This document shows, piece by piece, positions 124 through 63,980 of a stretch of DNA of 64,000 nt. Source of the stretch: a virus (lineage: Duplodnaviria; Heunggongvirae; Uroviricota; Caudoviricetes); the IMG/VR virus record IMGVR_UViG_2861079508_000001, one strand, 5' to 3'. The position numbers and the translations under genes are program-made. The notes under the pieces were generated by a model that ran no database searches, had not been told where the DNA came from, and was given only the letters and a program-made list of their open reading frames with translations. Each line of letters starts with the position of its first letter. The first letter of the stretch is position 1.

Positions 124-3100
124 TTACAGAAGGCCAATTCTTACTCGTAGGACGTTGTTATCGTCATAAACGTCAATCCGCTGACCATTTATGACCAGTC
201 GCCCATTACCCCCGCTATTACCGTTGATCTCAAGCGTTCCATTTTTGCCGAACCGCCATCCAGATCTACCGCTAACAAAATTGGTAGATTGCAGATCGCC
301 TACTTTTGCATTGGTGATTGTGCCATCCTTGATATACGCACCATTCATATAGGCGATACTGTTTTCGATAACAAATGGCGTGGTGATCTTCCCGTTAACA
401 GAGTTGACCAAACCAAACCTGTCAGCCTGCACCAAAAACTGAGAAAGGCCAGTGGTGTCGATACCAAGCGCAATACCAGCAACATACTTCTGCCCTCCGC
501 TCGTTGAAGTTTCCATTTTCAACGTCCACGCGGTTGACACTTTTTTGTTGGTATCAGCAATAGCTGTTGCCTGCTGTTGAATTGTCGCGGTATTTCCATC
601 CACCTCTGCTTTCAGAGTATCGATTCGCCCACTCAGAGCATTATCTGCCTGCGTTCTCGCTGTCGTTTCAGTTGTTACCGCCGCGGAAATGTTGGCTGCC
701 GTTTGAGACTCTAAGTTTGTGATTTGAGTCGCCAATGCAGCATCTTGCTCTGTACGCGTTTTCGTTTCGGTTGCTACAGCCGCTTTAATATCCTCTTTGT
801 ATTGAGAGGTCAGCTTGGTGATCTGAGACGACAACGCCGAGTCAGCATCAGTTCGAGCCTGCGTTTCAACTGCAACGGCCGCACTAATATCTTTCGCTGT
901 CTGTGCTTTTAAACTTGAAACCTCTTTTGTTAAAGCGGTATCACCATCAGCACGAGCCGTTGTTTCTCTGGCAAGAGATGCCTCGAGATCATTAGCTTTT
1001 GCTGTAAGAGACGAAATCTGAGTGGACAATGCACTATCGGCATCAGTCCTTGCCTTTGTCTCTACAGCAACCGCTGCGGCAATATCAGTTCCGGTTTGTG
1101 CTCGCAGGCTGTTAATTTCTCGTGAGAGCGCCTGGTCAGCACTTGCTCTGGCCTCCTGCTCCTGAGTGATGGCAGCGGATATATCACCGTCAACCTTTGA
1201 CTGAAGCTGGTTTATTTGTTTGGCTAACGCAGAGTCCCCGCTTGCTCGGGCCTCCTGCTCACTACGTATTGCAGCAGAAATATCATCATCAACCTTTGCC
1301 TGAAGTTGGGTGATCTGGCTTGCCAGAGCCGAATCTTCCGTTGCTCGGGCTTCTTGCTCTTCCTTAATAGCTGCGACGATATCGTTGCTTACTTTCGACT
1401 CAAGCTGAGTGATCTGTGTCGTCAGAGCTTCATCGGCAGATGTGCGAGCCTCCTGCTCTGTACTAATCGCCGCGCTGATATCTCCTTCAAACTTAGATTG
1501 CAGCTGAGTGACACGCTTTGCCAACGCTTCATCGCCATCGGCACGAGCGGTGGACTCTTCCAGAATACTGGCCTTAATGTCTTCGCCAATTTCTACGCGA
1601 ATTTCCTCAACCTTCGTGGCCATTGCAGACATATCATCAGCAAAGGTTTTCTGTGTTGTTGCGATCTTCGCGTTATTGACCATCTGCTTGTGCTGGTCTT
1701 CATCTTGACGAAGAGCTAGGTCAATATTTGTTTTGGCTAACGCCTCAATGTTCGTAGTCAGTTCTGCACTGGCACGATCGACCTCTGCAACCGTCTTTTT
1801 CATTTCTTCAACGGCAGCGGAGCTTTCCTCTACCGTTGACTGCAACACTTCCAGTTGTTTAGCGTTTGCAGCATCGCCTTCAACACGAGCCTCGCTTTCC
1901 TTAGCAATAAGAGCCGCCGCTTCATCTCTTGCAGCCTTTATTGCCTCGACTGTATTAGCGAGAGCTTTATCGTGTTCAGATACGGTGTTTTCGATTTCAA
2001 CAATTGCAGCATCAGTAGCATCAATTTTTTCAAACGCTTCATTGACCTTGTCGATCGTTGCCGAAACCTCACCTTTAAGCTCGGTTTGTGCGTTCTCCAA
2101 AGCATCGCTACGCTCGTTGAATTTTATTTCAAAACCCGCGAGGTTATCGCTGAACTGCTTATCTAATTCAGCTATATCTTCCTTAACGTCGTTTACCGAC
2201 CCCTCCAAAGATTCGACGCTCTGGTTGATATGCTCATTTAACTCGTCAACTGCTTCTTGAGAGGCTTTGCTGTTGATGTCCTCAAGCAGAGCCTGACCAA
2301 GCTCGGAAGATGTAATTTTGCCAGCCAGGAACGACAGTACATCGCGAGTTGTCGCCTCTGTACCCAAGTTTGAGTTCGGAGGGCTTAACATACCTCGCTT
2401 GTTCGATGCTCGAACCCAGTAATACCACGTTTCGCTATCCCCAAGACCAGCATGTGTAAAGGTGGTGCTTGCAGACTCTGCGATCAGTTTCGCCGTATCC
2501 AGATTGTTGGTCTGGGATGCGTAAACATTAATGTGATCAAGGTCTACCGAATCTGGATTAACCCAATTCAGTATCACATTACGATAGTCTCCAACGGCCG
2601 TTAATGACGTTGGTGCATCCGGCGGTGTCATTGTGCCCAGCACCTGATAAACGGTACTGATAATTTCTGTTTTTTTACCGTTGAATGAAACCGCATACAG
2701 TTGGAAGTCGTAGCGTCCATTCTCCGCGACATTAACGATTTCGTATTGTTCTTCGGTTACACGCGCCGATTGCCAGTTCGATACATTGTTTTCATCAGAA
2801 CGTCGCCAACTGATCCAATACTCTGGAGATTTCCCTTCCCATGTTGCAGTCAGTTTTACTGACAGGTTGCCCGGGCTTGAGAGGTAAGTCCCTTCAGTGA
2901 TTTGCAAATTAGACGGCTTGGAGTAAGTCGGGTCCAATACCGTCGTATTCTGCGGGATAAGCGTTGCACCATTGTCGATCGCCTCATATTTAGACGGATT
3001 GTTTTCAACAGCGGTGATGTCAAAGCTACCCGACGTTTCCCCCTGAGCGATGTTAACGATGCGAACGCGCATAGGTTCGAGATCTGGTTCTGTAATTGTC

Positions 3101-12429: not shown

Positions 12430-13286
12430 CGAAGCATCACCCGCATACGTTCCATTTCGGCCGCAGCTTCAACAATAGGCTTCTGCCACCCAAACATGAT
12501 GTCAGTAACCGTTCTGGCTGCATCTCCGATCTCGCCAAGCAGGAAAATGTTGCCACGAAGGCCAGAGAACATACCTCCTTCGTTACTTTTACCGCTATGG
12601 CCAGAAGCGCCGCTACGCCGCCCGCTACCACCATCGCCACTTCCAGATGTACGAACGCGTACCGGCTTGCTAATCAGTTGCTGACGTCCGATAACTTCGT
12701 CCATCTGCTCACGAACCTTTTTCAGTCCCTCGGCAGCCTGACTCGTTGTGACACCCCAATTACTGAGTCGCTTCGTCGTGGTATTAAGGCGCGTATTCAT
12801 GCCACTCACGGACGCAGAGGCTTCTTTGACCTCCGTACCAAAGCGGCTTGCGCTTTTGCTTGCATAGGTCGCCCAATCAGAGAAATCATTTAGCTCTGAT
12901 TGCACTTTACGTAATGACGCGGTGAGTTTATCTACTGAAGAAGTTGTCGTATCGACGCGCTCAATCAGGGCTTTAAGACCAGAATTGAGGCTGGTGATGT
13001 TGCCACGCATTTTACGCGTAGCATCTGAAGCAAGCTCAAAACCGGCAGCTACATCCTGTAGTTTATCTGCTGTAGAATCGAGCTTGCTTTCCAGAACGCC
13101 AATGATACGGGCGACCGAACCCAAAGAGCGTTCAAAGGTTTGGATTTTTTGAGCAGGCTTTGTTACCTGCTCACCAAATCGAGTAAGCAGTTTCCCCGCA
13201 CGATCGATTGACGCTGTAAACTGTTTGTCTTCCAGCGACAGGATAAACTCTACGTTTTGTGACATTCCCTTGTCATCCTCTGCCAA
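12430..13286 (-). pseudogene. tape measure protein, N-terminal ~285 codons, truncated by IS insertion
   Basis: ORF reads through into the IS right end and terminates there; frame is consistent with the C-terminal fragment once the IS and one CGA copy are removed. Confidence 0.75.
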
Positions 13287-21806: not shown

Positions 21807-23063
21807 CTATCGAGAACCACCAAGAATAACACGGTTTTTGACTGGATACCTACGATGTACTGGATAGCCCAATGCGTCTGCACTATGCTCAATGCCACCT
21901 GTCTTATCCATATCTCGTGTTCCAGGCTTGTAGATGACTTTTTCCAGTGAATCAATCAAATGCTTGCACTTCGGATCGATATACAACCGGATATCTCCAG
22001 ATGCGGTCATCAGCATTCGGTTAACAGCATTAACACGATCCGCAATTGGCGGGTGCTTTTTCGAATAATCGACACGTAAGAATCCCTTCTCTTTGAATAT
22101 GTCGACGTCAGACTCCCCGCGAGCATGTTGGCGATAAGCACCTGCCGGATCTGGAAATACCGTTATCTGTGATTTCCAGCGCCAGAAGCGTCTCTCAAGC
22201 TCATCACAAACCTCTGCCGTGTTAGAGGAAAAGAGCACCAATTCATCAATTGCCCATAGCTCACCATTTGGCTGAGGTTGCAAAATTACTGAAGACATCG
22301 GGTCAATGTTGAAGTCCTGCCCTACCCATATAGGCAACCGAGGGTTGAACTGAAGCGGTTTTACATGCACGTTACGATCGAACGGGTAGTAAACGCGCCC
22401 GGACATGTTCTCAAAGCTCGCCAGGTACTCCTGAGCGAACGATTTCGGGTCCATATCGTTCTTAGCAGCTTCAATTTCCGCCGTAGGCACAAACGGAGAA
22501 TCGGCAGTTACAAACTGCCAGCTCTTCCACTGTCCCTTTCTTTGCAGCTCTACGTTCTGGCCTATAGTCCACAGTTTGTGAAATTCCGAGAAACCTTTTG
22601 GCGTACCAATGATAAGTGCACCGCCGCGTGTCGATGAAAGAGTAGGTCGTAACACCTTGTACCAGGTGTCAGCCTTCATATCCTGAAATTCATCAAGCAC
22701 TACAAAATGCAACGCTACGCCGCGCAGAGTGTCAGGCTTATCAGCACCTTTGAGGGCGATCTCCGAACCGTTCTTCAACACGATTGTCATCGTGGTGTCG
22801 TTCTTTTTCCTAACCCACTTACGAGGCAGAACTTCCTGTAGATCGTCCCACAAAATCTGGCGAGCCATCTGGTAAGTAGGAGCGACATACCAGACCCTTT
22901 GCTTTTTTTCCTTTGCCGCCGCACGAATAATAGTGGAGATCGACAACCGGGATTTTCCCCAGCGTCGACCAGCACAAACAACTTTAAATCGATGCGGAGA
23001 CTGGAAGACTTTCATCTGTCCAGAATGCAGTTGCACAAGACTGAGCGAGGACGGGATTGCCAT
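21807..23063 (-). CDS. terminase large subunit
   Basis: Walker A CAGRRWGKS and Walker B VVLDEF ATPase motifs; C-terminal nuclease-like region. Confidence 0.75.
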   Translation of the reverse strand: MAIPSSLSLVQLHSGQMKVFQSPHRFKVVCAGRRWGKSRLSISTIIRAAAKEKKQRVWYVAPTYQMARQILWDDLQEVLPRKWVRKKNDTTMTIVLKNGSEIALKGADKPDTLRGVALHFVVLDEFQDMKADTWYKVLRPTLSSTRGGALIIGTPKGFSEFHKLWTIGQNVELQRKGQWKSWQFVTADSPFVPTAEIEAAKNDMDPKSFAQEYLASFENMSGRVYYPFDRNVHVKPLQFNPRLPIWVGQDFNIDPMSSVILQPQPNGELWAIDELVLFSSNTAEVCDELERRFWRWKSQITVFPDPAGAYRQHARGESDVDIFKEKGFLRVDYSKKHPPIADRVNAVNRMLMTASGDIRLYIDPKCKHLIDSLEKVIYKPGTRDMDKTGGIEHSADALGYPVHRRYPVKNRVILGGSR

Positions 23064-23695
23064 TATTCGTCCTCCCCTTCACTTCCATCATCTGTCGCAT
23101 CAAATTCGCTTAGAGCTTCTTCTTCCAACGTCTCAAGCAATTCGTCATCGATGATTTCAGGCTCGTCGTCTTCCTGACGTAATTTCGCCACCTGGGAAGG
23201 CGTAAGCTCACCAAATACCAGGTTCGGAATTTCTTCCTCGTCATTTTCCGCATGATCCATGCCCAATGCTTTGGACGAAACTTCAAAGCATTTTGCAAGG
23301 GTATTACTGGCTCTCTGTAAGCTCTTGAGAGAATCCTCAATCGCCCCTAAAGGCTTACCCTCACGTTTGGCCGTAGTGACTTCGACCATCACCATCTGCC
23401 CCAACGCATACGCCCAGCCGTCATAACGTGTACGACGTTCTTCTATCTTTTCCGCACGGGCTTTAGCGCGAAGCTCTGCGTCAGATTTAAGAGACTCACG
23501 AACCATCTTCCCAACAGAGTCCGCGCCTTTCTCTAATCCTCGCTTTTTGAAATGTCTGGAGAGTGTTTCACGACGAATGCCGTACTCTTCCTCCAGCTTT
23601 GAGAGTGTATATTCGCCTGACGTCCATTTGGCTTCAGCTTCGGCCCACTCCGCTGGTGTCAGGCGAGTTTTTACCTCGTCTTTTTCGACCGTCAT
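23063..23695 (-). CDS. terminase small subunit (putative)
   Basis: 210 aa, N-terminal HTH-like region, acidic C-terminus, directly upstream of terminase large subunit. Confidence 0.55.
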   Translation of the reverse strand: MTVEKDEVKTRLTPAEWAEAEAKWTSGEYTLSKLEEEYGIRRETLSRHFKKRGLEKGADSVGKMVRESLKSDAELRAKARAEKIEERRTRYDGWAYALGQMVMVEVTTAKREGKPLGAIEDSLKSLQRASNTLAKCFEVSSKALGMDHAENDEEEIPNLVFGELTPSQVAKLRQEDDEPEIIDDELLETLEEEALSEFDATDDGSEGEDE

Positions 23696-23744
23696 AGATC
23701 CCTCTAAAACACACAGAGCGCGTCCATGCGCTCTAAAACAACTT

Positions 23745-29014: not shown

Positions 29015-29479
29015 ATGAAGTCTCCCATACTGTTCACTTTCTGTTCTAAAACTATCATGAAATACTCGCTTCTCCCTCTACTAACGTTACCAGTGTTGAT
29101 GCTTACCGCGTGCCAATCACGCCCAATATCAATCCATGACGCCAAACCAGCACCGCAGGCCAAAGTGTTCAAGTATCAAAGCGCAGCGCCAGCTACGTTG
29201 GTGGTAATGAGAGACACAGGTTTTGTAGGAGCTGGATGTGATGCTTCCATTTTCATCAACGGCGAAACTGTCGCAAAACTGGCTACAGGCGAAAAAGCGA
29301 CTTTCCATTTAAATGCCGGAGAATTAATTGTGGGTGCATCTCTTGAAGGTGCAGGTTTATGTGCTCTAAACCCCGCTCGTCAAGAGCGAGAAACGACTCT
29401 GAAGAATGGAGACACAAAAGCGTTCAGGGTGTTCACCAGCAATTCTGGTGACATCGACATTCTGCCAACAACTCTGTGA
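29015..29479 (+). CDS. lipoprotein (candidate superinfection exclusion protein)
   Basis: Signal peptide with lipobox LTAC; start may be internal Met (MKYSLL). Confidence 0.5.
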   Translation: MKSPILFTFCSKTIMKYSLLPLLTLPVLMLTACQSRPISIHDAKPAPQAKVFKYQSAAPATLVVMRDTGFVGAGCDASIFINGETVAKLATGEKATFHLNAGELIVGASLEGAGLCALNPARQERETTLKNGDTKAFRVFTSNSGDIDILPTTL

Positions 29480-29483
29480 TGAC

Positions 29484-30008
29484 ATGACAACCAAAGATAT
29501 TACCTACGGTATCCAAGCTGAACTCTGGCCGCGAGATTACACTAACGTTGAAAAACTACTGATGTTCTGGCGCAGAGAACAAATTCCTGTAAGGGTCACT
29601 CTCGAAGATGGCCAGGCGTTTTGCATGTACGTTTATGGCCTCATGCCATCTCGTAACAAAGTTGACCTTTGCCCAGCCCCTTTTGACAAAGAAAATCGTA
29701 TAAGGCTCCCACTTGAACGCATTAGTACAATTGAATCAGGTGTGGTTGACAGTATCGCTCACGATTTCAAAGGTCGACTAACAGTTCACCCTGATTATGT
29801 CGATAATCGGCCATCACGCCGCGATTTTTTTGCAATTTGCAACCAAGCCTACAAAGCAAACAAATCTATAAGGGTGTACATGGCGGATGGCCGTGAAATT
29901 GAGGGGGTGTCAGCAGGCGCAGATGCTTGTCAGGTTACACTACGTGTCGAGAACGGTAGAAAAATAGTTGTTTTGTTCGATTGGGTTGAACGAATTTTGC
30001 CTTTTTGA
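29484..30008 (+). CDS. hypothetical protein
   Basis: ORF 29406-30008 trimmed to first non-overlapping ATG (MTTKDITYG). Confidence 0.4.
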   Translation: MTTKDITYGIQAELWPRDYTNVEKLLMFWRREQIPVRVTLEDGQAFCMYVYGLMPSRNKVDLCPAPFDKENRIRLPLERISTIESGVVDSIAHDFKGRLTVHPDYVDNRPSRRDFFAICNQAYKANKSIRVYMADGREIEGVSAGADACQVTLRVENGRKIVVLFDWVERILPF

Positions 30009-30602: not shown

Positions 30603-31253
30603 ATGGCTAACATTATCATTTCTAAAAAATCCATCATTGAAGCTGCTTCCATTGTATCCGATGAACTGCGCGAAAAAGCAGATCTGGCAACTCAAACATA
30701 TAACGAACATTATAAAAATGGTACGCACACTAAAGCAGACAAAGCAAATATGCAAGCTGCGACCACTAAACTTGCTTACTTCATCAACAACGTCGTAAAC
30801 GCAGTAGAAGACGAAAAATTATGCTCTGTTTTCTACTATGCGATTAAAGCAAGCAAACAAGCGCCAGAAGTATTTTTCCGTGATGCAATGACTAATAGTT
30901 ATTCTCTGGAAAAACTGGTTTATCTGGTTAAATCAATTAAATCTGGTAAATGCGTTTATTCCATCGCTGATATGTCAGGATCTCGTGTATTCGCTTTAAT
31001 CGATATGATTAACGACGAGATCGACACGTTCACCAATGGCGCTGTTTTCGATTTAATGAATGAAGCTAAAAAAGCGTGCGAAATTAAATTGGACGCTGGC
31101 TATACTCAAGCCAACCAGTTGATCAATCTTTGCGAACGTCTTGGACTTGTTGAGAAAGTCAAAGGAATGGGAAGCGCAAAAGCTGGTACACAGCAATATC
31201 GCTTTATCAAGAATGATTTCTACAATTATTTAGCTGATGCTTTTAAAGCGTAA
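30603..31253 (+). CDS. hypothetical protein, AT-rich codon usage
   Basis: 216 aa ORF with RBS; composition differs from flanking phage genes. Confidence 0.5.
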   Translation: MANIIISKKSIIEAASIVSDELREKADLATQTYNEHYKNGTHTKADKANMQAATTKLAYFINNVVNAVEDEKLCSVFYYAIKASKQAPEVFFRDAMTNSYSLEKLVYLVKSIKSGKCVYSIADMSGSRVFALIDMINDEIDTFTNGAVFDLMNEAKKACEIKLDAGYTQANQLINLCERLGLVEKVKGMGSAKAGTQQYRFIKNDFYNYLADAFKA

Positions 31254-31265
31254 TTAATGGAATCA

Positions 31266-31283
31266 AGCGCCCACTATGGGCGC
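31266..31283 (+). terminator. hairpin AGCGCCCACTATGGGCGCT (copy 1, weak T-run)
   Basis: Inverted repeat; identical hairpin recurs at 31764-31782. Confidence 0.35.
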
Positions 31284-31303
31284 TTTAAAGGAGCTTTAAA
31301 AAA

Positions 31304-31507
31304 ATGGTCAGCTATGACAAGATCCGCGCAAAGTATCGCGCAAAGTATCGCGCTTATAAACTGGAATTAATCGATGATTTGATCGCGCAACGCGACCAAT
31401 TAAATTTTACGTTTTCTGATTTGCTTAACAGCAAGCGAGATTGCAAGCGCAAACGTGAATACTTACGTTTAAGCGCATTAATCGGAAAACTTCAAAATTC
31501 TATTTAA
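31304..31507 (+). CDS. hypothetical small protein (low-complexity N-terminus)
   Basis: 67 aa ORF containing a 12-bp tandem repeat. Confidence 0.3.
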   Translation: MVSYDKIRAKYRAKYRAYKLELIDDLIAQRDQLNFTFSDLLNSKRDCKRKREYLRLSALIGKLQNSI

Positions 31508-31528
31508 TTTTTTTTAAGGAGCTTAATC

Positions 31529-31759
31529 ATGTTTGTTCTTATCGCTGGCGTTAACGTCCATAATGAATATTATGTTAATCGCATCGCTGGGATCGCTGGT
31601 TACGCTGGGCGCGCAGTCGAGCTTATAGATGAAACGACGCGCAAAATTGACTTATTGAGCGACCAGGAGCGAAAAAAAGCAGACGTGAACGACGCTGATA
31701 TATTTTTAATGTTAAAAGCGTTTGTAGAAATGGGATTTAAAATCAGTTTACACAAATAA
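31529..31759 (+). CDS. hypothetical small protein
   Basis: 76 aa ORF with RBS AAGGAG. Confidence 0.35.
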   Translation: MFVLIAGVNVHNEYYVNRIAGIAGYAGRAVELIDETTRKIDLLSDQERKKADVNDADIFLMLKAFVEMGFKISLHK

Positions 31760-31763
31760 AATC

Positions 31764-31789
31764 GAGCGCCCACTATGGGCGCTTTTTTT
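31764..31789 (+). terminator. intrinsic terminator (hairpin AGCGCCCACTATGGGCGCT plus T7 run)
   Basis: hairpin followed by TTTTTTT. Confidence 0.65.
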
Positions 31790-31810
31790 CGTTTCCAATA
31801 CACCTACCAT

Positions 31811-31838
31811 AACGCGCCATCATTGGCGCGTTTTTATT
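31811..31838 (+). terminator. intrinsic terminator (AACGCGCCA-TCAT-TGGCGCGTT plus T-run)
   Basis: hairpin and T-run read from sequence. Confidence 0.55.
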
Positions 31839-32244
31839 GTCTTTAACTCACTCCAACAACATAAAAATAAGCGCCAAAATAACGCCATAGACGCGCTTTT
31901 ATATCCTTACCAGTACATGCCCATTACTTAACACATTAACGCGCTTAAAACGCATTATATTGCGCTATAGAGTATGGTTAATCATTGGCTTTTAGTCTTG
32001 CTATGTGATCCGCGTTTATTTGTCGGTGCGGATCGGCATTTTGTTTTGTTCTGTATCCGCTCGCGTATTATGTGCGCGTAATTTTTCACATAATCACACC
32101 ACTTAATCACGTATGTGATTATGCTACGAAAGAAATCTGGATGTCTCAGGCGACGAAAGTCATCATAATTTCCCCCGCTCACCTGTCCGACAACCGCTGG
32201 TTGGATTCCACCAGCTTCCCGATGTTTTTTCTACACAAAGGCGA

Positions 32245-32340
32245 ATGCAGCCGTTTCCCGAAAAAATCCTGGCCGTTCCCCGTCGGCTCATGAATACGTT
32301 CCTCGCCGTTTCTGAAAATTTCCCTGCGGCAGCTGGTGGC
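32245..32340. repeat. array of GCCGTTTCC(C/T)GAAAA-like repeats ending at a Chi octamer
   Basis: Three degenerate copies plus GCTGGTGG at about 32332-32339; related array at 35380-35520. Confidence 0.5.
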
Positions 32341-32375
32341 TATAGAGAAAGGGCCGTTTCTGGCCCTCTTCTCAG

Positions 32376-32858
32376 TTACACGCCATCAAGGATGTGGATG
32401 CGGTTGCTTGCGTATACATTCAGCATAAAGTTAGCGCAAAACAGTTTCCATGTATCAACGCCAGCGGTATACGTAATGTTTTTGCATTTAATTGCATTGT
32501 TGGCGATCCGCATCCCCTGCGATACTGCTTCATCGTCGGAAAATTTGAACGACGATTGAGTTTTAATCCAGACAGAAATCTGCGTAGCGAACTCAATCAG
32601 CTTGGACTGGCAGAATCGCCCGGAGCGCACCGGAAGGACGAACGTTCCGAATCCAGAATTTACCACATATGCTTTCTCAAATACCCGCGAGTAACGACGA
32701 TTGCCAATGATGTCGCGTGCAATAATGCATTTTTCTTGTGCTGACAGTTCTACCGTCTCATTGTCGCGCCATGCACCAAGTACTCGTTTTTCAATGTCAG
32801 AGAACGTTACAGCGATATTGCCATGTGCGGGTGCGTTTACAGTAGCGATAAAATTCAT
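32376..32858 (-). CDS. hypothetical protein
   Basis: 160 aa ORF preceded by promoter and motif. Confidence 0.5.
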   Translation of the reverse strand: MNFIATVNAPAHGNIAVTFSDIEKRVLGAWRDNETVELSAQEKCIIARDIIGNRRYSRVFEKAYVVNSGFGTFVLPVRSGRFCQSKLIEFATQISVWIKTQSSFKFSDDEAVSQGMRIANNAIKCKNITYTAGVDTWKLFCANFMLNVYASNRIHILDGV

Positions 32859-32876
32859 GATTAATTCCTTATCGTA

Positions 32877-32933
32877 AATAACAAATTGTTTTCTTGTTGG
32901 TGTTAATTATCGTTGTACGAATAAGGCGTCAAA
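32877..32933 (-). promoter_or_regulatory. sigma70-like promoter (TTGACG - 16 bp - GATAAT) with downstream AACAA-N-TTGTT motif
   Basis: Hexamers on minus strand; palindrome between -10 and RBS. Confidence 0.5.
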
Positions 32934-33208
32934 GTGGAAAGTTGCGGTAGCCGGACGGGAACAGGTGGGTTTGTCGGTTGCCTGGAGGTAAGAGGTTGGT
33001 GTTATTAGCCTGAGGGAAACAGGATGGTCATTTAAGACCACCAATGCTGGTGGCCTTAATAATTATCGCCCGATTACGCTAAGGATCTTTTCCTCAACTG
33101 ATTTGTTGTTGCGACTAAACTGCCTTGCGTATCTGATGACAGAAGAGGCGTTTTGCTTTCTGACCATCTCGGCTCTTTCCTTCAGGCGTTTCTTGAAATC
33201 GCCCATAT

Positions 33209-33625
33209 TTACCACCAGGCGCAGAAGGTCAGTCTGTTATTGTGAAAGTCGTGGTTCTTAATCAGATCTTCCACAAGCTCTTTCAACTGCCCCACATCAT
33301 GCCAGTAACCTTCGTCGTACTCCTGACTGCCGAAGAAAAAACCTTCCCGAGTAGGCAAGTACTCTTCGCAATTGCTTTCGTTTATGTGCATCAAATGAGC
33401 TTTCAGAAGACAAATGTCATTCATCGTTAATTCTAAAAGCTCACAATTTTCGACTTCACCTACGTTGCGCTCCATCCACCCAACGAGCGCATTGAACTTA
33501 CGGAAGTAAGCAACCTGCTTTCTGGATGCCTCGTTATTCAGATCGTTTTTAGGCTGTGTCTCGATATAGATATCAAGTCCCATGATGGTTTCCTTATTAA
33601 CTTGCTTCAGTAAAATCATTTTCAC
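33209..33625 (-). CDS. hypothetical protein
   Basis: 138 aa ORF; likely true start a few codons inside. Confidence 0.45.
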   Translation of the reverse strand: MKMILLKQVNKETIMGLDIYIETQPKNDLNNEASRKQVAYFRKFNALVGWMERNVGEVENCELLELTMNDICLLKAHLMHINESNCEEYLPTREGFFFGSQEYDEGYWHDVGQLKELVEDLIKNHDFHNNRLTFCAWW

Positions 33626-33666
33626 AAATCAGATAAGGCAGAAAACAAATTGTTATCTGGCTTAAT

Positions 33667-33692
33667 AAAATGGCGCGGTTTACGCGCCATTT
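33667..33692. terminator. intrinsic terminator hairpin (AATGGCGCG-GTTTA-CGCGCCATT)
   Basis: Hairpin flanked by A/T runs, immediately after a TAA at about 33701. Confidence 0.5.
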
Positions 33693-33856
33693 AAAGAGGA
33701 TTAAGCGAATACGCTTTCAGGGATTAAGGTGTCGGCAGGAATGCCAGAGGTAATGCGCAGGCCGTACTGACCAATCCAGGTAGTGTTGGTATTCAGGCTG
33801 GAGGCGAATACGGTGTTAACCATATTCATCATGGTTTCAAACACCTCTTCATCAAC

Positions 33857-34096
33857 CTAGCGGAAGTAGTTCTCGATTTTCAGCAGCAGCGGGTCAGTTG
33901 CATCGAGAATGGACTGGTATTGAGTCGCGTACTCGCCGCCGGAGGCATCACCTTTACGCACGATCGTACTGGCCTGGACTTCGGCACCAGTTTCGGTGTT
34001 GTACGTAACAACGGTAATTTTTGCCACATTCTTACCTTCGGCGGTTTCAGAGGCATAGTAAACATCAACTGTCAGTTTTTCGCGTTTAACGGTCAT
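33857..34096 (-). CDS. hypothetical protein, apparently truncated (79 aa) by a premature TAG
   Basis: ORF ends at TAG; protein-like reading frame continues about 49 codons to a TAA at about 33701 followed by a terminator. Confidence 0.45.
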   Translation of the reverse strand: MTVKREKLTVDVYYASETAEGKNVAKITVVTYNTETGAEVQASTIVRKGDASGGEYATQYQSILDATDPLLLKIENYFR

Positions 34097-34221
34097 TTCA
34101 CTCTCCGTAGTGTATTGGTTATTTTTATATTCTATAATCGTAAGTATTTACTTACAATACAAAAAGCCCCGTAAGGATGGCGGGGCTGTCGTACTGTCGA
34201 CTAATTGCCACTTGCACATTA

Positions 34222-34533
34222 TCAGGCTATTGCCATCACTGATGCTCTCTGAATTTCTTGCTGGGCCACGCGGTTAACTTCCATCAAGGCCAGTTCGAGC
34301 TGATGTTCCGGCCACATTCTTTGAAACGCCATCCAGCCTTTTCCACGCTGGCGACGAACATTCATTACATAACGAGTAAAGGTGTTTTTATCGAAAGACA
34401 CCGCTGTTTCACGGAACAGACGAATAGAGGTTCCATTGGCAACGATGTCCAGCAAAGTTAATTGAGCAACCAGCGCAGGCTTCTCTTTTCTCTTCTGGTC
34501 TTTGTCCAGACCAAGAACCAATGATTTTTTCAT
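34222..34533 (-). CDS. hypothetical protein
   Basis: Start at MKKSLVLG with RBS GGAG; motif AAACAACTTGTTTTCT immediately upstream. Confidence 0.5.
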   Translation of the reverse strand: MKKSLVLGLDKDQKRKEKPALVAQLTLLDIVANGTSIRLFRETAVSFDKNTFTRYVMNVRRQRGKGWMAFQRMWPEHQLELALMEVNRVAQQEIQRASVMAIA

Positions 34534-34544
34534 CACAACTCCGT

Positions 34545-34560
34545 AAACAACTTGTTTTCT
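34545..34560. promoter_or_regulatory. palindromic motif AAACAACTTGTTTTCT
   Basis: between -10-like TATTAT and RBS of downstream gene. Confidence 0.45.
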
Positions 34561-34687
34561 CAATGGCGTAAATAATACCAATAAGAAAACGGCTACAAAG
34601 CATAATGATCAGGTGCATGAGCGATATGCAGGTTCTTCCCTGCGGCTACAGATTAAGTTAAGCCAGCAATGCTGGCTTTGGTTGGGA

Positions 34688-35017
34688 TTACGCGAATACC
34701 TCAAGAAACTCCTGAACGTCCCAATGCTGGACGAGGTGAAGATAGACCTTAGAAATCACGTCATTTTCGCTATCGCATGTGAAGTAGTACTTCTGGCTGC
34801 GGTTGTATGTGTCCACACAAAATTCGCTCATATCCATAAAGTCAGCATCATCACCCAGGTCGCTAATCATCAAAGCAGGTGCATCATCACGAGTCATCAG
34901 CTCCAGCACCCATCTTGAATTAATCAGAGTGGAAGACCAACCTTCCAGCTCATAAAACTGGTCAAACTCTTTTTGAGTCAATTTCTTAATTTGGTTGATG
35001 TCGATATTTGCAAACAT
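34688..35017 (-). CDS. hypothetical acidic protein
   Basis: Start at MFANIDINQ with RBS AAGGA. Confidence 0.5.
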   Translation of the reverse strand: MFANIDINQIKKLTQKEFDQFYELEGWSSTLINSRWVLELMTRDDAPALMISDLGDDADFMDMSEFCVDTYNRSQKYYFTCDSENDVISKVYLHLVQHWDVQEFLEVFA

Positions 35018-35029
35018 AAAGCAATCCTT

Positions 35030-35045
35030 AAACAAGATGTTTTCT
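35030..35045. promoter_or_regulatory. palindromic motif AAACAAGATGTTTTCT
   Basis: between -10-like GATAAT and RBS. Confidence 0.45.
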
Positions 35046-35379
35046 TAATGGTGTTATTATCGCAATAACGCACAGGCGAAAAAGGATTTTATTCCGGTGA
35101 ATGTGGTTTTGGCAGTGAGTTTTCAGGTTCAGTACAGAGTACACTTTTTACATTATTCTGATTTAGTGGCCGAAGATGGCTGGTGGGCAGAATAATCATC
35201 TCCCCGAAAACCTACTGAAATCGATTGTGACCCGTTGGCTGTCTGGCACAATTACGCTGTAACTGGGCATTCAGAGGGAATCCAGCGGTAAGTAGGTTCG
35301 CCTTCACGTGAGCGCCTCTCTTCTTCCCGCACATTACAGGTGGGTAGCCGCAACTCTCCCTCTCGCTATGCCGGTACGC

Positions 35380-35520
35380 CGCCGTTCCTGAACCGGCATC
35401 GAGCCTTTTCCCGAAATCCACACAGGCAACTCGACCGTTTCCCTGAAAACCTCCAGCCGTTCCCCGAAGGCAACCCAGCCGTTTCTGTAGCGGGATGCAA
35501 CCTTTTCCCTGTATGGACCG
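35380..35520. repeat. array of about 6 degenerate (G)CCGTTTCCC(T)GAA-like repeats
   Basis: Units at about 22-bp spacing read from sequence; Chi octamer at about 35179-35186 nearby. Confidence 0.5.
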
Positions 35521-35619
35521 AAGGCTGACCGTAGGGGTGTTACGGGGGATAAAATCAGGAGTTGAATAAATACGAAAAAGGAGGCGACACCCCTCCTTCC
35601 CTCCCCACTTATACATACC

Positions 35620-36580
35620 TGGCTTCTTCGCTATACATGTTGTGTTTTATCTGTCTCAACCTCTCTATAGGCGTTAATGCTCACTCCTTCCAGAATGTTC
35701 TATACGGCAACTATTTCTGTTGGTGAATTGGGTGTGTTGTTCTCTCTGTCGGTGTATGTGGTTTCGTTCGTTTTGCGGTGGTTCTTCTATGGGGTGTTCT
35801 CGTCGTTTTGGTGATTGTTCTTCTCCGTGTATGGAGTAATGGCAGGTGGGCGATTCCTTTCGTTGTTGTGTTTGAGTTGTTTGTCTGGAGTGTGTGAAAG
35901 GCTTTTGCAGTTATTCGTGTATTGGGTAATGGCATTTCCCGTGATTGTTGTGTTTCGTGTCTTTTGGGATTGAGAGAAACCTTGCGGTTACAGGCTTCGT
36001 TGGGGTTTCAGTGATTCTGGTGTTCTTCGCTGTTTGGGGAATGGCGTGTCGTGGGTATCGCGCGTATGAATGTTTTCGGATTGCCTGTGAAAGTTAGGTT
36101 GGTTGTCCGGTAGCCTGGGGAGAAGAGGTGGGTCTTTTCGGTAGCCTGCCATAAAGAGGTTGGTTGTTTTTGGAAATGGCATTTGTGTTATTTAGTTGTT
36201 TTGTTATGCCTGAAAATAAGTTGTTTATATGGTTGTGTAACGCAACGGGAGCGATTTTGAGCGTGTGTTTTTGTTGGTAGTGTGTTGGGTCGTCTGTGGT
36301 GAAAATTGGACGCTGTGGCGCTGTCTGCTGCGTAGAGTTACGGGTATAAGCAGTGATGTGTGAAAACGTCAATTTTTTAGACCAAATCGGGTGAAAGCGT
36401 TGATGTTTCGTTGATCTGTTATTCAGTTGTTTTCTTGATTGTATAAACAACTATAACTTATTGATATTTAAGGATGTGATTGCGGGTATGGAAGAAGAGT
36501 AGTGGCGATCAACGGATTCTTATAGAAAAGAATCAAATTGTGACCGCCATTATCAACTGATTGATTTGTTTACTTGTGTA
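35620..36580. repeat. ORF-free GT-rich, C-depleted region with degenerate repeats
   Basis: No ORF of 60 aa or more on plus strand; strong G+T skew; repeated GGNAATGGC and GGTAGCCTG...AGAGGTNGGT units. Confidence 0.6.
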
Positions 36581-36581
36581 G

Positions 36582-36980
36582 TCAGTTCTCGAAATGAATA
36601 GGGTCAACGTAATGCCGCTCACCGCTTTTACCATTACACAGCACTGTAACTTTCGCCTTTTCACTCCAGGCTGAGTATAGAAAGTTCCCATCAGGTTGAA
36701 CATGGTAACGAGAGAAGTAAACATCGCCGACTGAGGCGTCGAACATGTTCCTATCTTTTTCACTTTGGGCAAGCGAGATGGATATCACCGAATTCCCATT
36801 TGGGGAAACGATTTTAAATTTATTCCCTATATCCATAACAATATTGTAACCAGGTAATTGCTTGTGTGTTTCCGGATCTATTTTCATGCATCGTGGGTAC
36901 ACGATAGTGTTAGGCTCTTCAACTGGCGTGGCATTAGCAGAAAGCACAAAAAATATTAGTGCCAATGGTGCATATTTCAT
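36582..36980 (-). CDS. secreted/periplasmic hypothetical protein
   Basis: N-terminal signal peptide MKYAPLALIFFVLSANA. Confidence 0.5.
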   Translation of the reverse strand: MKYAPLALIFFVLSANATPVEEPNTIVYPRCMKIDPETHKQLPGYNIVMDIGNKFKIVSPNGNSVISISLAQSEKDRNMFDASVGDVYFSRYHVQPDGNFLYSAWSEKAKVTVLCNGKSGERHYVDPIHFEN

Positions 36981-37274
36981 TTATCCCTCACAATTTCCAA
37001 TTTTCCAGACCATCGTCTATTTCAGCGTCAGGGTGGAATTGTACCGCATCAAATCCTACATCGAGCACCTTTCGAATGTTCTTGATGGTTTGCTATGTGA
37101 CACCGTAATCACGCAGCTTTTCTTCCCTCCCCTGACTCCCCCATACTCCGTTTCTGTACCCAATTGAGTCCGAGATTGTATGGTGCTCGAAACAGATATT
37201 TGGTAGACACTCAGAGTCATGCTGTGTAACGAGGGTAGGGCTACTAACTGTCGTCTTATACAATTTGGTGAGTT

Positions 37275-37523
37275 TCAGCATTTTACCACCCCGTTCGGAA
37301 ACAACTCATTCGCCGTAGTTGATATAACCTCCCAATTAACGCCGACATCAGCGTTATGGCATTGTCTGATTTTTTGCATCACCTGTACGCATTGTTCATC
37401 AGTGAGATCTGTCCTTACTTCAGCAATATCTTCTTTGTGCCACATAACCATGAGTAAGGGTTCGTCTTCTGGATAGTTTTTCAGTTTCTCGATGATTTCT
37501 TTTGCTGTTCCAAACATCTTCAT
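37275..37523 (-). CDS. hypothetical protein
   Basis: 82 aa ORF with motif upstream. Confidence 0.45.
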   Translation of the reverse strand: MKMFGTAKEIIEKLKNYPEDEPLLMVMWHKEDIAEVRTDLTDEQCVQVMQKIRQCHNADVGVNWEVISTTANELFPNGVVKC

Positions 37524-37676: not shown

Positions 37677-39710
37677 TTACTTAACCTGGTGGCCAGGTTT
37701 AGCACCAGCATCCGGGCTTAACAGGAAGATATCTTTCCCGCCGGGGCCAGCAGCCATCACCATGCCTTCAGAGATACCGAAGCGCATTTTACGTGGTGCC
37801 AGGTTAGCCACCATAATGGTGTGACGACCAATCAGTGCCTGTGGATCTGGATAAGCGGAACGGATGCCTGAGAAGACATTACGCTTTTCACCACCGAGAT
37901 CCAGCGTCAGGCGAAGCAGTTTGTCAGAACCTTCTACAAACTCTGCGTTTTCAATCAGCGCCACGCGCAGGTCAACTTTGGCGAAGTCGTCAAAGGTGAT
38001 AGTTTCCTGAATCGGGTCGTCAGCCAGTGGGCCAGTTACCGGTGCGGCTGTGGCTTTCACTTCTTCTTTGGATGCTTCCACCAGTGCTTCAACCTGCTTC
38101 ATATCGATGCGGTTATACAGTGCCTTGAACGGATTCACTTTATGGCCCAGCAGCGGTTGCTGGATACCATCCCAGGTCAGTTCTGTATTCAGGAATGCTT
38201 CTGCACGTTCAGTCAGTTTCGGCAGTACCGGTTTCAGGTACGTCATCAGCACGCGGAACAGGTTAATGCCCATAGAGCAAATCGCCTGCAGATCGGCATC
38301 GCGTCCTTCCTGCTTTGCCACCACCCACGGAGCCTGTTCATCAACATAGCGGTTAGCCAGGTCAGCCAGTGCCATGATTTCACGGATAGCTTTGCCAAAT
38401 TCGCGGCTTTCCCATGCTTCGCCAATCACTTCAGCGGCATCAGTAAAGGTTTTGTACAGTTGCGGGTCAGCCAGTTCGCTTGCCAGCACGCCGTCAAAAC
38501 GCTTGTTGATAAAGCCTGCATTACGGGAGGCCAGGTTAACCACTTTGTTAACGATATCGGCATTCACACGCTGAACGAAATCTTCCAGGTTGAGATCGAT
38601 ATCATCAATGCGCGAAGAGAGTTTCGCAGTGTAGTAGTAACGCAGGCTGTCGGCGTCAAAATGATTCAGCCAGGTGCTGGCTTTAATAAAGGTGCCGCGA
38701 GACTTGGACATCTTCGCGCCGTTCACCGTCACATAGCCGTGAACAAACAGGTTGGTCGGCTTGCGGAAGTTGCTGCCTTCCAGCATGGCAGGCCAGAACA
38801 GGCTGTGGAAGTAAACGATATCTTTGCCGATGAAGTGGTACAGCTCGGCGGTGGAGTCTTTCTTCCAGTATTCGTCGAAGCTGGTAGTGTCGCCGCGTTT
38901 GTCGCACAGATTCTTGAAGGAACCCATGTAGCCAATCGGCGCGTCCAGCCAGACGTAGAAGTATTTGCCCGGTGCGTTCGGAATTTCAAAACCGAAGTAA
39001 GGTGCGTCACGGGAGATATCCCACTGTTGCAGGCCAGATTCAAACCACTCCTGCATTTTGTTTGCCACCTGCTCCTGCAACGCACCGCTGCGGGTCCATG
39101 CCTGCAACATTTCGCTGAAAGAAGGCAGATCAAAGAAGAAGTGTTCGGAATCACGCATTACCGGTGTAGCGCCAGAAACCACTGATTTCGGCTCGATCAG
39201 TTCCGTCGGGCTGTATGTCGCGCCGCAGACTTCACAGTTATCGCCGTATTGATCCGGCGCTTTACATTTCGGGCATGTGCCTTTTACAAAACGGTCCGGC
39301 AGGAACATGCCTTTTTCCGGGTCGTACAGCTGAGAGATGGTGCGGTTTTTAATAAAACCGTTCTCTTTCAGGCGAGTATAGATAAGCTCGGACAACTGAC
39401 GGTTCTCTTCGCTGTGCGTCGAGTGATAGTTGTCATAGCTGATGTTAAAGCCTGCGAAATCAGTCTGATGTTCCTGACTCATTTCGCCAATCATCTGTTC
39501 CGGTGTGATACCAAGCTGCTGTGCTTTCAGCATGATTGGCGTACCGTGGGCATCGTCGGCACAGATGAAATTAACCTCGTGGCCGCGCATTCGCTGGTAA
39601 CGAACCCAGACATCAGCCTGGATGTGCTCCAGCATATGGCCGAGGTGGATTGAGCCGTTAGCGTACGGCAGCGCGCACGTCACCAGAATTTTCTTCGCGA
39701 CTTGGGTCAT
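37677..39710 (-). CDS. metG: methionine--tRNA ligase (enterobacterial host-type)
   Basis: 677 aa from [25 protein letters not shown] (HIGH motif), KMSKS motif, C-terminal tRNA-binding domain; near-identical to Escherichia MetG by recall. Confidence 0.95.
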
Positions 39711-39867
39711 AGTAGGCATTACTTCTTTGTAGTGAAAAGGGGCTTGATAGTAACAAAATGGCCTTATGTCTGCCATGTGATAACAGCATTTCTCATAAAT
39801 GATTAAATGTCGTAGCTGGAGTACACTACAAGGCGACAATTGCGCAAATTAAAATAAAGGAGACGGG

Positions 39868-63679: not shown

Positions 63680-63776
63680 ATGTCATTTTTCTGTGATTGT
63701 TAGCCGAGGCAACGATAACCCACCAGGTGCGCCGAAGGTAGTAAATGCCTGTTTTAATTATTCACATATCCACAGG

Positions 63777-63833
63777 ATAGATCCTAATAAAGAGATCCAT
63801 AGATAGATCCTTATATAGATCAAATAAGATCCC
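63777..63833. repeat. five (T/G)AGATC(C/A) heptamers at about 11-12 bp spacing (GATC cluster)
   Basis: Direct repeats read from sequence. Confidence 0.6.
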
Positions 63834-63879
63834 CGATCGCTGTAAGCCGCGCCACGACTGGTCTGAAGTCATGTTCATG

Positions 63880-63980
63880 TATGCTGTCAGCGGTAATTGA
63901 TAGTCTGTCAGCGGTTCACCGTATGCTGCCAACTGTTTTTGGTATTCTGTCAGCGGCAAATCAAGTATGCTGTCAGCGGT
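63880..63980. repeat. four to five TGCTGTCAGCGG-like iterons at about 20-bp spacing
   Basis: Direct repeats read from sequence at the window end. Confidence 0.6.

Follow-up and report, generated by a model that had tools for sequence, protein, structure and literature searches.

What two small arrays of one short repeat do in a phage-plasmid is the question raised by the locus studied here. They lie in a stretch of 64,000 nucleotides (the window) of a Caudoviricetes virus, IMG/VR record IMGVR_UViG_2861079508_000001, which its annotated relatives place among the SSU5-type phage-plasmids. Judging from sequence comparison, array 1 (32249-32330) and array 2 (35380-35522) are almost certainly docking sites for a sequence-specific DNA-binding protein. 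Our preferred and still tentative reading, to which we give a probability of roughly 0.4, is that they are iteron-type sites for a family-specific protein that would control phage-mode replication, either as an origin or by titration and looping. A preliminary description of the sequence had suggested protein-binding sites, with the terminase small subunit or an initiator as binders. The first part of that proposal stands, as the repeats are site-like and non-coding (phased, co-oriented, silent and conserved above their flanks), while the terminase gained no support and an initiator survives only in a phage-mode form.

The two arrays share a phased unit

Both arrays are where they had been placed before, with three and six units, respectively, and a spacing of about 22 bp. 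Array 1 consists of three co-oriented units with cores starting at 32251, 32273 and 32306 (spacing 22 and 33 bp) and a trailing half-unit, TTTCCCTGCGG. The six units of array 2, also co-oriented, have cores starting at 35382, 35404, 35435, 35457, 35479 and 35501 (spacing 22/31/22/22/22 bp), and the plus strand carries every unit of both arrays. What is conserved is a core of about 11-13 bp, yCAG-CC(G/T)TT(T/C)CC(C), the remainder of the 22-bp unit being variable. The repeat had been called GAAAA-like; there is indeed a repeat, but only some of its units have the GAAAA tail. Because just 11-13 or so of each 22 bp are conserved, Tandem Repeats Finder is silent on the arrays, and the units show in a motif scan. 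In both arrays the direct repeats keep helical phase at a length within the 17-22 bp expected of an iteron origin, and the G+C content of the arrays is 53-60%.

The clustering of the motif is real and far beyond chance. The heptamer CCGTTYC has 19 copies on the two strands of the window, eight of which are within the arrays. Allowing up to two mismatches, the 11-mer AGCCGTTTCCC has 29 matches, compared with 14.3 +/- 3.9 in shuffled sequences, and none of 100 shuffles reached 29; seven of the 29 fall in the two arrays. Across the 108 kb of Escherichia phage Cyrano the motif clusters at the array positions only. A fourth copy of CCGTTTC near array 1, at 32354, is held in the loop of a terminator-like hairpin (32343-32372, minus strand) that ends the gene of a 160-aa protein, and the hairpin with this copy is conserved in relatives as GGGGCGTTTCCAGCCCC.

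The arrays overlap open reading frames (ORFs) at 32245-32559 (plus strand) for array 1, and at 35212-35616 (minus) and 35340-35528 (plus) for array 2. These had been judged weak and the arrays more likely non-coding, a view that the comparison with relatives upholds. That the repeats are coding sequence, or an artefact of chance or low complexity, is hardly credible: ORFs of 62-134 aa do overlap both arrays and are annotated in some records, but they are not conserved between relatives, a period of 22 nt shifts the frame at every unit, the number of units differs among relatives, and the clustering is far above chance. Since the annotation of these ORFs in relatives is inconsistent or missing and the unit number varies, the arrays are not conserved coding sequence. 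Array 1 lies between convergent transcription units with a terminator-like hairpin on either side, and array 2 between a terminator-like hairpin and the promoter of the gene cassette that separates the arrays. Both thus appear to be in transcriptionally silent intergenic DNA, which suits a site acting at the DNA level. A structured non-coding RNA was considered and rejected, as Rfam gives no match at E<=1 in 31000-37500 and the arrays sit between terminators and promoters.

The arrays belong to a conserved module

The 5 kb around the arrays share 97% identity with Escherichia phages CMS-2020a and Cyrano and 94% with PhiR41_1, and have matches of 70-80% in Klebsiella phage-plasmids and in Salmonella phage SSU5. 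In Cyrano, the counterpart of window 32.2-36.5 kb is at about 94.3-99.1 kb. A motif scan of related phages, which had been proposed as a check, finds the arrays present rather than absent, at the same position and in the same orientation. Both are found in this way, usually with the 22-bp spacing, in SSU5, in four Klebsiella phage-plasmids and in dozens of IMG/VR contigs of 100-110 kb. In the plasmid collection searched, the array 1 block occurs in 765 plasmids and the array 2 block in 712. The block of about 100 bp that holds array 1 is conserved at some 85-90% in SSU5, Klebsiella, the IMG/VR relatives and plasmid pMT1 of Yersinia pestis, while the non-coding DNA upstream of it diverges. In the relatives, array 2 has 3-6 units at a constant position, again usually spaced by 22 bp.

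The gene order was compared in 26 loci, a few of which end early on one side and lack the outermost genes. It runs from a gene for an FljA-like protein through the gene of a 216-aa protein, array 1, the 160-aa gene (minus strand), a variable set of small genes, a 103-aa gene (minus strand) and array 2 to a G+T-rich tract. The distance between the arrays, 1.5-4.2 kb, is set by the content of the cassette, which at its minimum has the 160-aa and 103-aa genes only. The 160-aa protein (PHROG 1641; 32376-32858, minus strand) always adjoins array 1 in the Enterobacteriaceae relatives; the 103-aa basic protein (PHROG 5125; 34222-34533, minus strand) is the other invariant product encoded between the arrays. 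Two Xenorhabdus contigs, found through distant homologues of the 216-aa protein, have copies of CCGTTTCCC at both array places as well as the C-run block described below, and neither the 160-aa nor the 103-aa gene was detected in them. The module is conserved from Escherichia to Xenorhabdus, and its arrays bracket a variable cassette of small genes.

To the right of array 2 there is a conserved non-coding block (35523-35625), GACCG.AGGG..GTTACGGGGGAT..TTGAATAAATACG..CCCCTCC..CCCACTTATAC, with C-runs on the plus strand and G-runs on the minus strand. It is still recognisable in Xenorhabdus (L130, about 13045-13170). It is followed by the ORF-poor tract of about 0.8-0.9 kb (35600-36500), in which G+T make up 70-76% of the plus strand, with a GC skew of about +0.45 and an AT skew of about -0.5. 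A tract of the same composition occupies the same place in SSU5, Klebsiella and Xenorhabdus. GATC is absent between 34607 and 36413. An RNA copy of the tract in the minus sense would be rich in C and A and have hardly any structure (-117 kcal/mol for 831 nt), and we found neither an Rfam family nor, on folding, a convincing RNA structure.

In plasmid pMT1 (NC_004835.1, 27824-45973), array 1 still has the 216-aa and 160-aa genes as its neighbours, and terL and terS, the ParB_N pair, the helicase and the FljA-like gene are present too. The region where array 2 and the G+T-rich tract are expected has been replaced, and the C-run block is missing as well. In line with this, 55 Yersinia plasmids match the array 1 block and none of them matches the array 2 block. 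The lack of array 2 and of the tract in pMT1 suggests that both are dispensable for plasmid maintenance.

The region between the arrays is also rich in Chi sites (GCTGGTGG). The window has 16 of them where 1.6 are expected, a tenfold enrichment, and four (32208, 32332, 33046 and 35179) are in the 3-kb region between the arrays. In three genomes, the corresponding 3-4 kb hold 5 of 24, 4 of 31 and 8 of 27 sites, that is, 4-8 sites where the Chi density of the respective genome predicts some 0.8-0.9. Array 1 sits between an inverted pair of Chi sites, carried by the two arms of an inverted repeat. The left arm (32208-32219), conserved in relatives, contains CCACCAGC, Chi on the minus strand, and the right arm (32328-32339) contains GCTGGTGG on the plus strand. 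At the position of the right arm SSU5 has GTTGGTGG and pMT1 ACTGGTGG, which shows that Chi function is not universally kept.

A single core copy at the promoter of the replisome operon

In three complete genomes, copies of the core octamer CCGTTTCC beyond the arrays are rare. A syntenic one is part of a 25-nt sequence, TCCCTTCCGTTTCCACTTCCAAAAA, that is identical in Cyrano (31245; L003, region 31221-31245), SSU5 (33550) and Klebsiella CP101896 (reverse complement, 78225). This site is outside the window, amid intergenic DNA that otherwise diverges. It precedes a -10-like TATCAT/TATGAT by about 34-35 nt and the gene of a 246-aa protein (Cyrano 31328-32068) by 83 nt. It overlaps or abuts the -35 region of a promoter whose -35 is weak. 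The 246-aa gene heads an operon for a DnaB-like helicase, a primase and a ligase. From this conserved copy in the promoter of the helicase operon it follows that the protein reading the core very probably controls the replisome operon of the phage. The pattern is that of RepE, pi and P1 RepA, which have a single operator at the promoter of a replication gene and arrays of the same core elsewhere.

Proposed iteron-type control of phage-mode replication

If the arrays control phage-mode replication, one protein encoded by the phage-plasmid would read the cores of both, which recur every 22 bp on the same helical face. The same protein would set the expression of the replisome operon and assemble cooperatively on the arrays. 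These would then serve as the phage-mode (lytic) origin or enhancer; alternatively, they would be titration and looping ("handcuffing") sites that control the lytic origin. Iteron control from a distance has parallels in P1 incC/incA, R6K gamma/alpha/beta and P4 ori/crr. Several observations speak for an origin: the iteron-like geometry, the two clusters a few kb apart, the copy at the replisome promoter, and a second array that pMT1 can do without. A further point in its favour is that the family has T4-like replication and recombination genes of its own (helicase, primase, Pol III alpha and epsilon, a gp32-like single-stranded DNA-binding protein, ligase and UvsW/UvsY), for which the literature searched describes no origin. 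We found no description there of a lytic origin or of these arrays in SSU5-type phages, nor of the switch from RepA-driven to phage-mode replication and its start site.

The initiator proposed earlier survives in part, as a phage-mode initiator or regulator and not as the RepA of the plasmid state. The window does not include repA, which in Cyrano is some 33 kb away from the arrays. We rejected the arrays as RepA iterons because those of Cyrano, which are 21 bp long, read CTCTATAGTGGAT and are unrelated to the arrays, flank repA to the left and right. The repA region of Cyrano (L004, 15100-17350) contains more than 20 of these iterons with the consensus CTCTCTATAGTGGATA and a 21-bp spacing, some of them inverted, and duplicated GGATCTCTTTGGATCT motifs. 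In Klebsiella relatives, the RepA iterons also adjoin repA (PMC6735626). No Rep-like gene was found next to the arrays.

The control of phage-mode replication has several points against it. None of the neighbouring proteins matches an initiator, a Rep protein, a ParB-type helix-turn-helix protein or another DNA-binding family in Pfam, PHROGs, NCBIfam, PADLOC or the PDB, and two structure models gave no informative fold match. The DnaA box TTATCCACA, allowing one mismatch, is absent from 31000-37000, and there is no AT-rich unwinding element adjacent to the arrays, the nearest 40-nt segments with at least 80% A+T being at 32847-32892 and 34108-34166. The single promoter site would be equally expected of an ordinary transcription factor. 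Lastly, a genome-wide switch of Chi polarity at array 1 is not significant in permutation tests on three genomes (P = 0.14, 0.65 and 0.52). The best partition of polarity does fall exactly on the Chi pair of array 1 in Cyrano and Klebsiella, and ties with three other intervals in SSU5, but given the permutations we dropped it as an origin pointer and do not count it as evidence. GC skew, also tried as a pointer, tracks only gene orientation. IHF sites were not found beside the arrays.

Two proteins are candidates for binding the core, the 216-aa and the 246-aa protein. The former (PHROG 1513; 30603-31253, plus strand) adjoins array 1 and is encoded upstream of it in 24 of the 26 SSU5-type loci, the other two ending before it. 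It is also present in pMT1 and Xenorhabdus, and is the sole neighbour of the arrays kept over this whole range. Across genera it is 83-87% identical where neighbouring genes are 55-70% identical, and the Xenorhabdus homologues are about 36% identical to the copy in the window. Among distant homologues, the densest cluster of invariant residues is C-terminal, D.G(Y/F)TQ.(N/D)Q..KLCER.G, and is followed by a predicted hairpin. This helix plus hairpin looks like the recognition helix of a winged-helix protein, and an unchanged putative recognition helix beside an unchanged DNA core is consistent with binding. The protein has no relative in the PDB, and its family numbers 23 members among the 1.84 billion representative proteins searched by profile. 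Attempts to name the neighbours, including this profile search and hhalign against RepA, returned family-restricted hypothetical proteins only. If the core is the binding site of the 216-aa or 246-aa protein, changing CCGTTTCC to CCGAAACC should abolish binding.

A bolder version of the replication reading, which we hold to be unlikely, is that a phage-mode origin of a new kind is made up of the arrays along with the C-run block and the 0.8-kb G+T-rich tract, and is fired by the winged-helix-like 216-aa family. Firing would possibly go through a transcript of the skewed tract, with array 2 as a looping enhancer. This would fit a phage with T4-like UvsW, UvsY and gp32 functions. If it is true, a lytic origin would be in hand for a family of phage-plasmids to which hundreds of plasmids from clinical Enterobacteriaceae belong, Y. 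pestis pMT1 among them.

Clinical Klebsiella, E. coli, Enterobacter and Salmonella often contain SSU5-type phage-plasmids, which can carry resistance genes. The arrays offer a short, precisely placed cis element with two candidate binders. They are also the fixed borders of a Chi-rich variable cassette, and may explain where the family exchanges accessory genes.

Transcription, packaging and partition as alternatives

A doubtful though reasonable alternative to replication control is that the arrays are operator, enhancer or decoy sites of a phage transcription factor that has no direct role in replication. Such a factor would activate or repress the helicase/primase operon through the single promoter site, while the arrays would regulate the flanking promoters (that of the cassette and possibly one for a transcript of the G+T-rich tract) or buffer the free factor. 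The singleton abuts the weak -35 of its promoter, array 2 is about 270-300 bp upstream of the minus-strand promoter of the cassette, and the locus is rich in regulatory repeats (AACAAnTTGTT palindromes and a 30-nt repeat, GGTAGCCTGG..AGGTGGGT), all of which would suit this explanation. The spacing does not: the gap from motif to -10 is about 34 nt at the singleton and 50 or 72 nt at array 2, and array 1 has only a non-conserved TATAGA as its -10. Moreover, array 1 lies amid convergent terminators with no conserved promoter adjoining it, and 3-6 phased sites in silent DNA would be unusual for simple operators. The pac or cos site with bound terminase small subunit that had been put forward earlier gained no positive evidence, and we regard a pac site as improbable. 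TerL (21807-23063, minus strand), which matches Terminase_6N, Terminase_3 and Terminase_6C, is of the T4 type by its Terminase_6N match, which we take to be a sign of headful, pac-type packaging and which is compatible with a pac site without proving it. Phased direct repeats are what the rings of the small terminase are thought to wrap, the arrays are in silent DNA, and Chi is locally dense between them in three genomes. However, terS (23063-23695, minus strand) is 8.5 and 11.7 kb away from the arrays, whereas the pac sites of P1, P22 and SPP1 are within or beside terS. There are two arrays, and a terminase site does not explain the core copy in the promoter of the replication operon. The Chi pair at array 1 faces inward, and by the general orientation rule RecBCD starting from a cut within the array would be blind to both sites. 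We found no report of the termini of SSU5-type phages in the literature searched, and the virome reads of E. coli LF82 (ERR8973296, cited in PMC9928086) cover Cyrano at low depth. The ends of contigs and records were tried as a proxy for virion termini and discarded: short loci are storage cuts, and in full-length contigs the arrays are internal.

Slightly less probable still are centromere-like sites for partition or plasmid pairing, which would serve the type Ib ParA with its small partner much as parC1/parC2 do in pB171. Type Ib and type II centromeres typically have repeat arrays. ParA and the 119-aa partner are conserved in the family, with 79-86% DNA identity, and there is no repeat array beside parA. 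But the partners of type Ib systems normally autoregulate through the centromere repeats, and the parA promoter has an AACAAgTTGTT palindrome (AACAAGTTGTT) and lacks the CCGTTTCC core. Furthermore, parA is more than 30 kb from the arrays, and the stably inherited pMT1 lacks array 2 and has array 1. The C-terminal part of the partner (SRTMSLEDEYFELLEMMKF...) looks by eye like a ribbon-helix-helix; as a rule, such proteins recognise short sub-sites in tandem or inverted order rather than a 12-bp core that recurs at 22-bp intervals.

Comparison with known systems

Like R6K gamma (seven 22-bp iterons, plus alpha and beta), P1 incC/incA and F incB/incC, the arrays have phased direct repeats of about 22 bp in one orientation and in 3-6 copies. 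They also share with iteron plasmids a distant second cluster, here a few kb off, and a copy in the promoter of a replication operon, reminiscent of Rep autoregulation. Unlike these plasmids, they have no adjacent Rep_3/RepA-type gene, DnaA boxes or AT-rich element, and only about half of the 22-bp unit is conserved. The ori and crr of satellite phage P4, 4.5 kb apart and made of repeats that the alpha protein binds, are likewise two clusters of one repeat in an element with its own helicase/primase. However, P4 has octamers, which occur in both orientations and are bound by the primase-helicase itself. In par2 of pB171 (parC1/parC2) and in R1 parC, as here, two repeat clusters bracket genes and pairing by a protein is plausible, but the arrays bracket genes other than par genes, the motif is missing from the par promoter, and array 2 appears dispensable in pMT1. 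The ends of Tn7 and Mu, with three and four 22-bp transposase sites, share with the arrays the site length, the uneven clusters and the variable cassette in between. We nevertheless rejected transposon ends of this type, as the arrays are in direct rather than inverted orientation and no transposase is among the neighbours.

An identical octamer, CCGTTTCC, is found in lambdoid O-like genes (L122, L027 and L031), which have three to five 22-bp iterons containing it (GATTCGGCgtTTGtG-CCGTTTCCA) next to GATC-rich AGATCTGT repeats. These iterons are inside the initiator gene, whereas the arrays studied here are intergenic. The resemblance is probably a coincidence, because the octamer was the search pattern. 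Homology to an O-like initiator was rejected, as neither the window nor Cyrano has a homologue (best tblastn E-value 0.28; hhalign probability 0.05%). The O-like iterons were seen in L122 (4369-5358), L027, L031, L101 and other IMG/VR contigs of 35-60 kb as GATTCGGCGTTTGTG-CCGTTTCCA after three AGATCTGT repeats, and encode a repeated peptide, ETAQTPNGNG.NAE.

Other features of the locus and the window

Many start codons are preceded, at a distance of 25-45 nt, by the palindrome AACAAnTTGTT, frequently in a longer form, AGAAAACAAnTTGTT. It occurs in the window at 23737, 32880, 33644, 34546, 35031, 36215, 36421, 37530, 37581, 44826, 45555 and 55774, preceding each gene of the cassette and terS; in Cyrano it is also found ahead of parA (L003, 29260) and of the helicase gene (L003, 32081). 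It resembles an operator read by a global regulator, or else a leader element common to these genes. A family of 30-nt repeats, CGGTAGCCTGG..AAGAGGTGGGT, has three copies at 32941-33028 and two at 36104-36164. Each set is 600-700 bp to the right of one array, and the first immediately precedes the -35 of the 160-aa gene's promoter. A segmental duplication of an array with its flank was considered and rejected, since 32100-33200 and 35250-36600 share just the two repeat families.

The FljA-like protein of the module (200 aa; 29406-30008), whose gene is conserved upstream of the 216-aa gene, matches the Pfam family Flag1_repress (FljA, the repressor of phase-1 flagellin) with an E-value of 2.5e-84 and gives a weak Hfq-like signal. 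Within the cassette, the PHROG 2473 gene, which encodes 131 aa in Cyrano, is interrupted in the window (33701-34096, minus strand) by an in-frame TAG that leaves two ORFs, of 79 and 47 aa; the gene is either a pseudogene or subject to read-through. Elsewhere the window encodes two ParB_N proteins, an ABC-type ATPase and a UvsW-like helicase. It also has a full-length gene for methionyl-tRNA synthetase (37677-39839), adjoined by a gene for a Mrp/MinD-like ATPase; both are also annotated in Cyrano and PhiR41_1 and are apparently captured chromosomal genes. Tandem Repeats Finder lists a 99-nt repeat in 2.2 copies, as well as a 26-nt and a 42-nt repeat, near the ends of the window (1142-1359 and 63768-63980).

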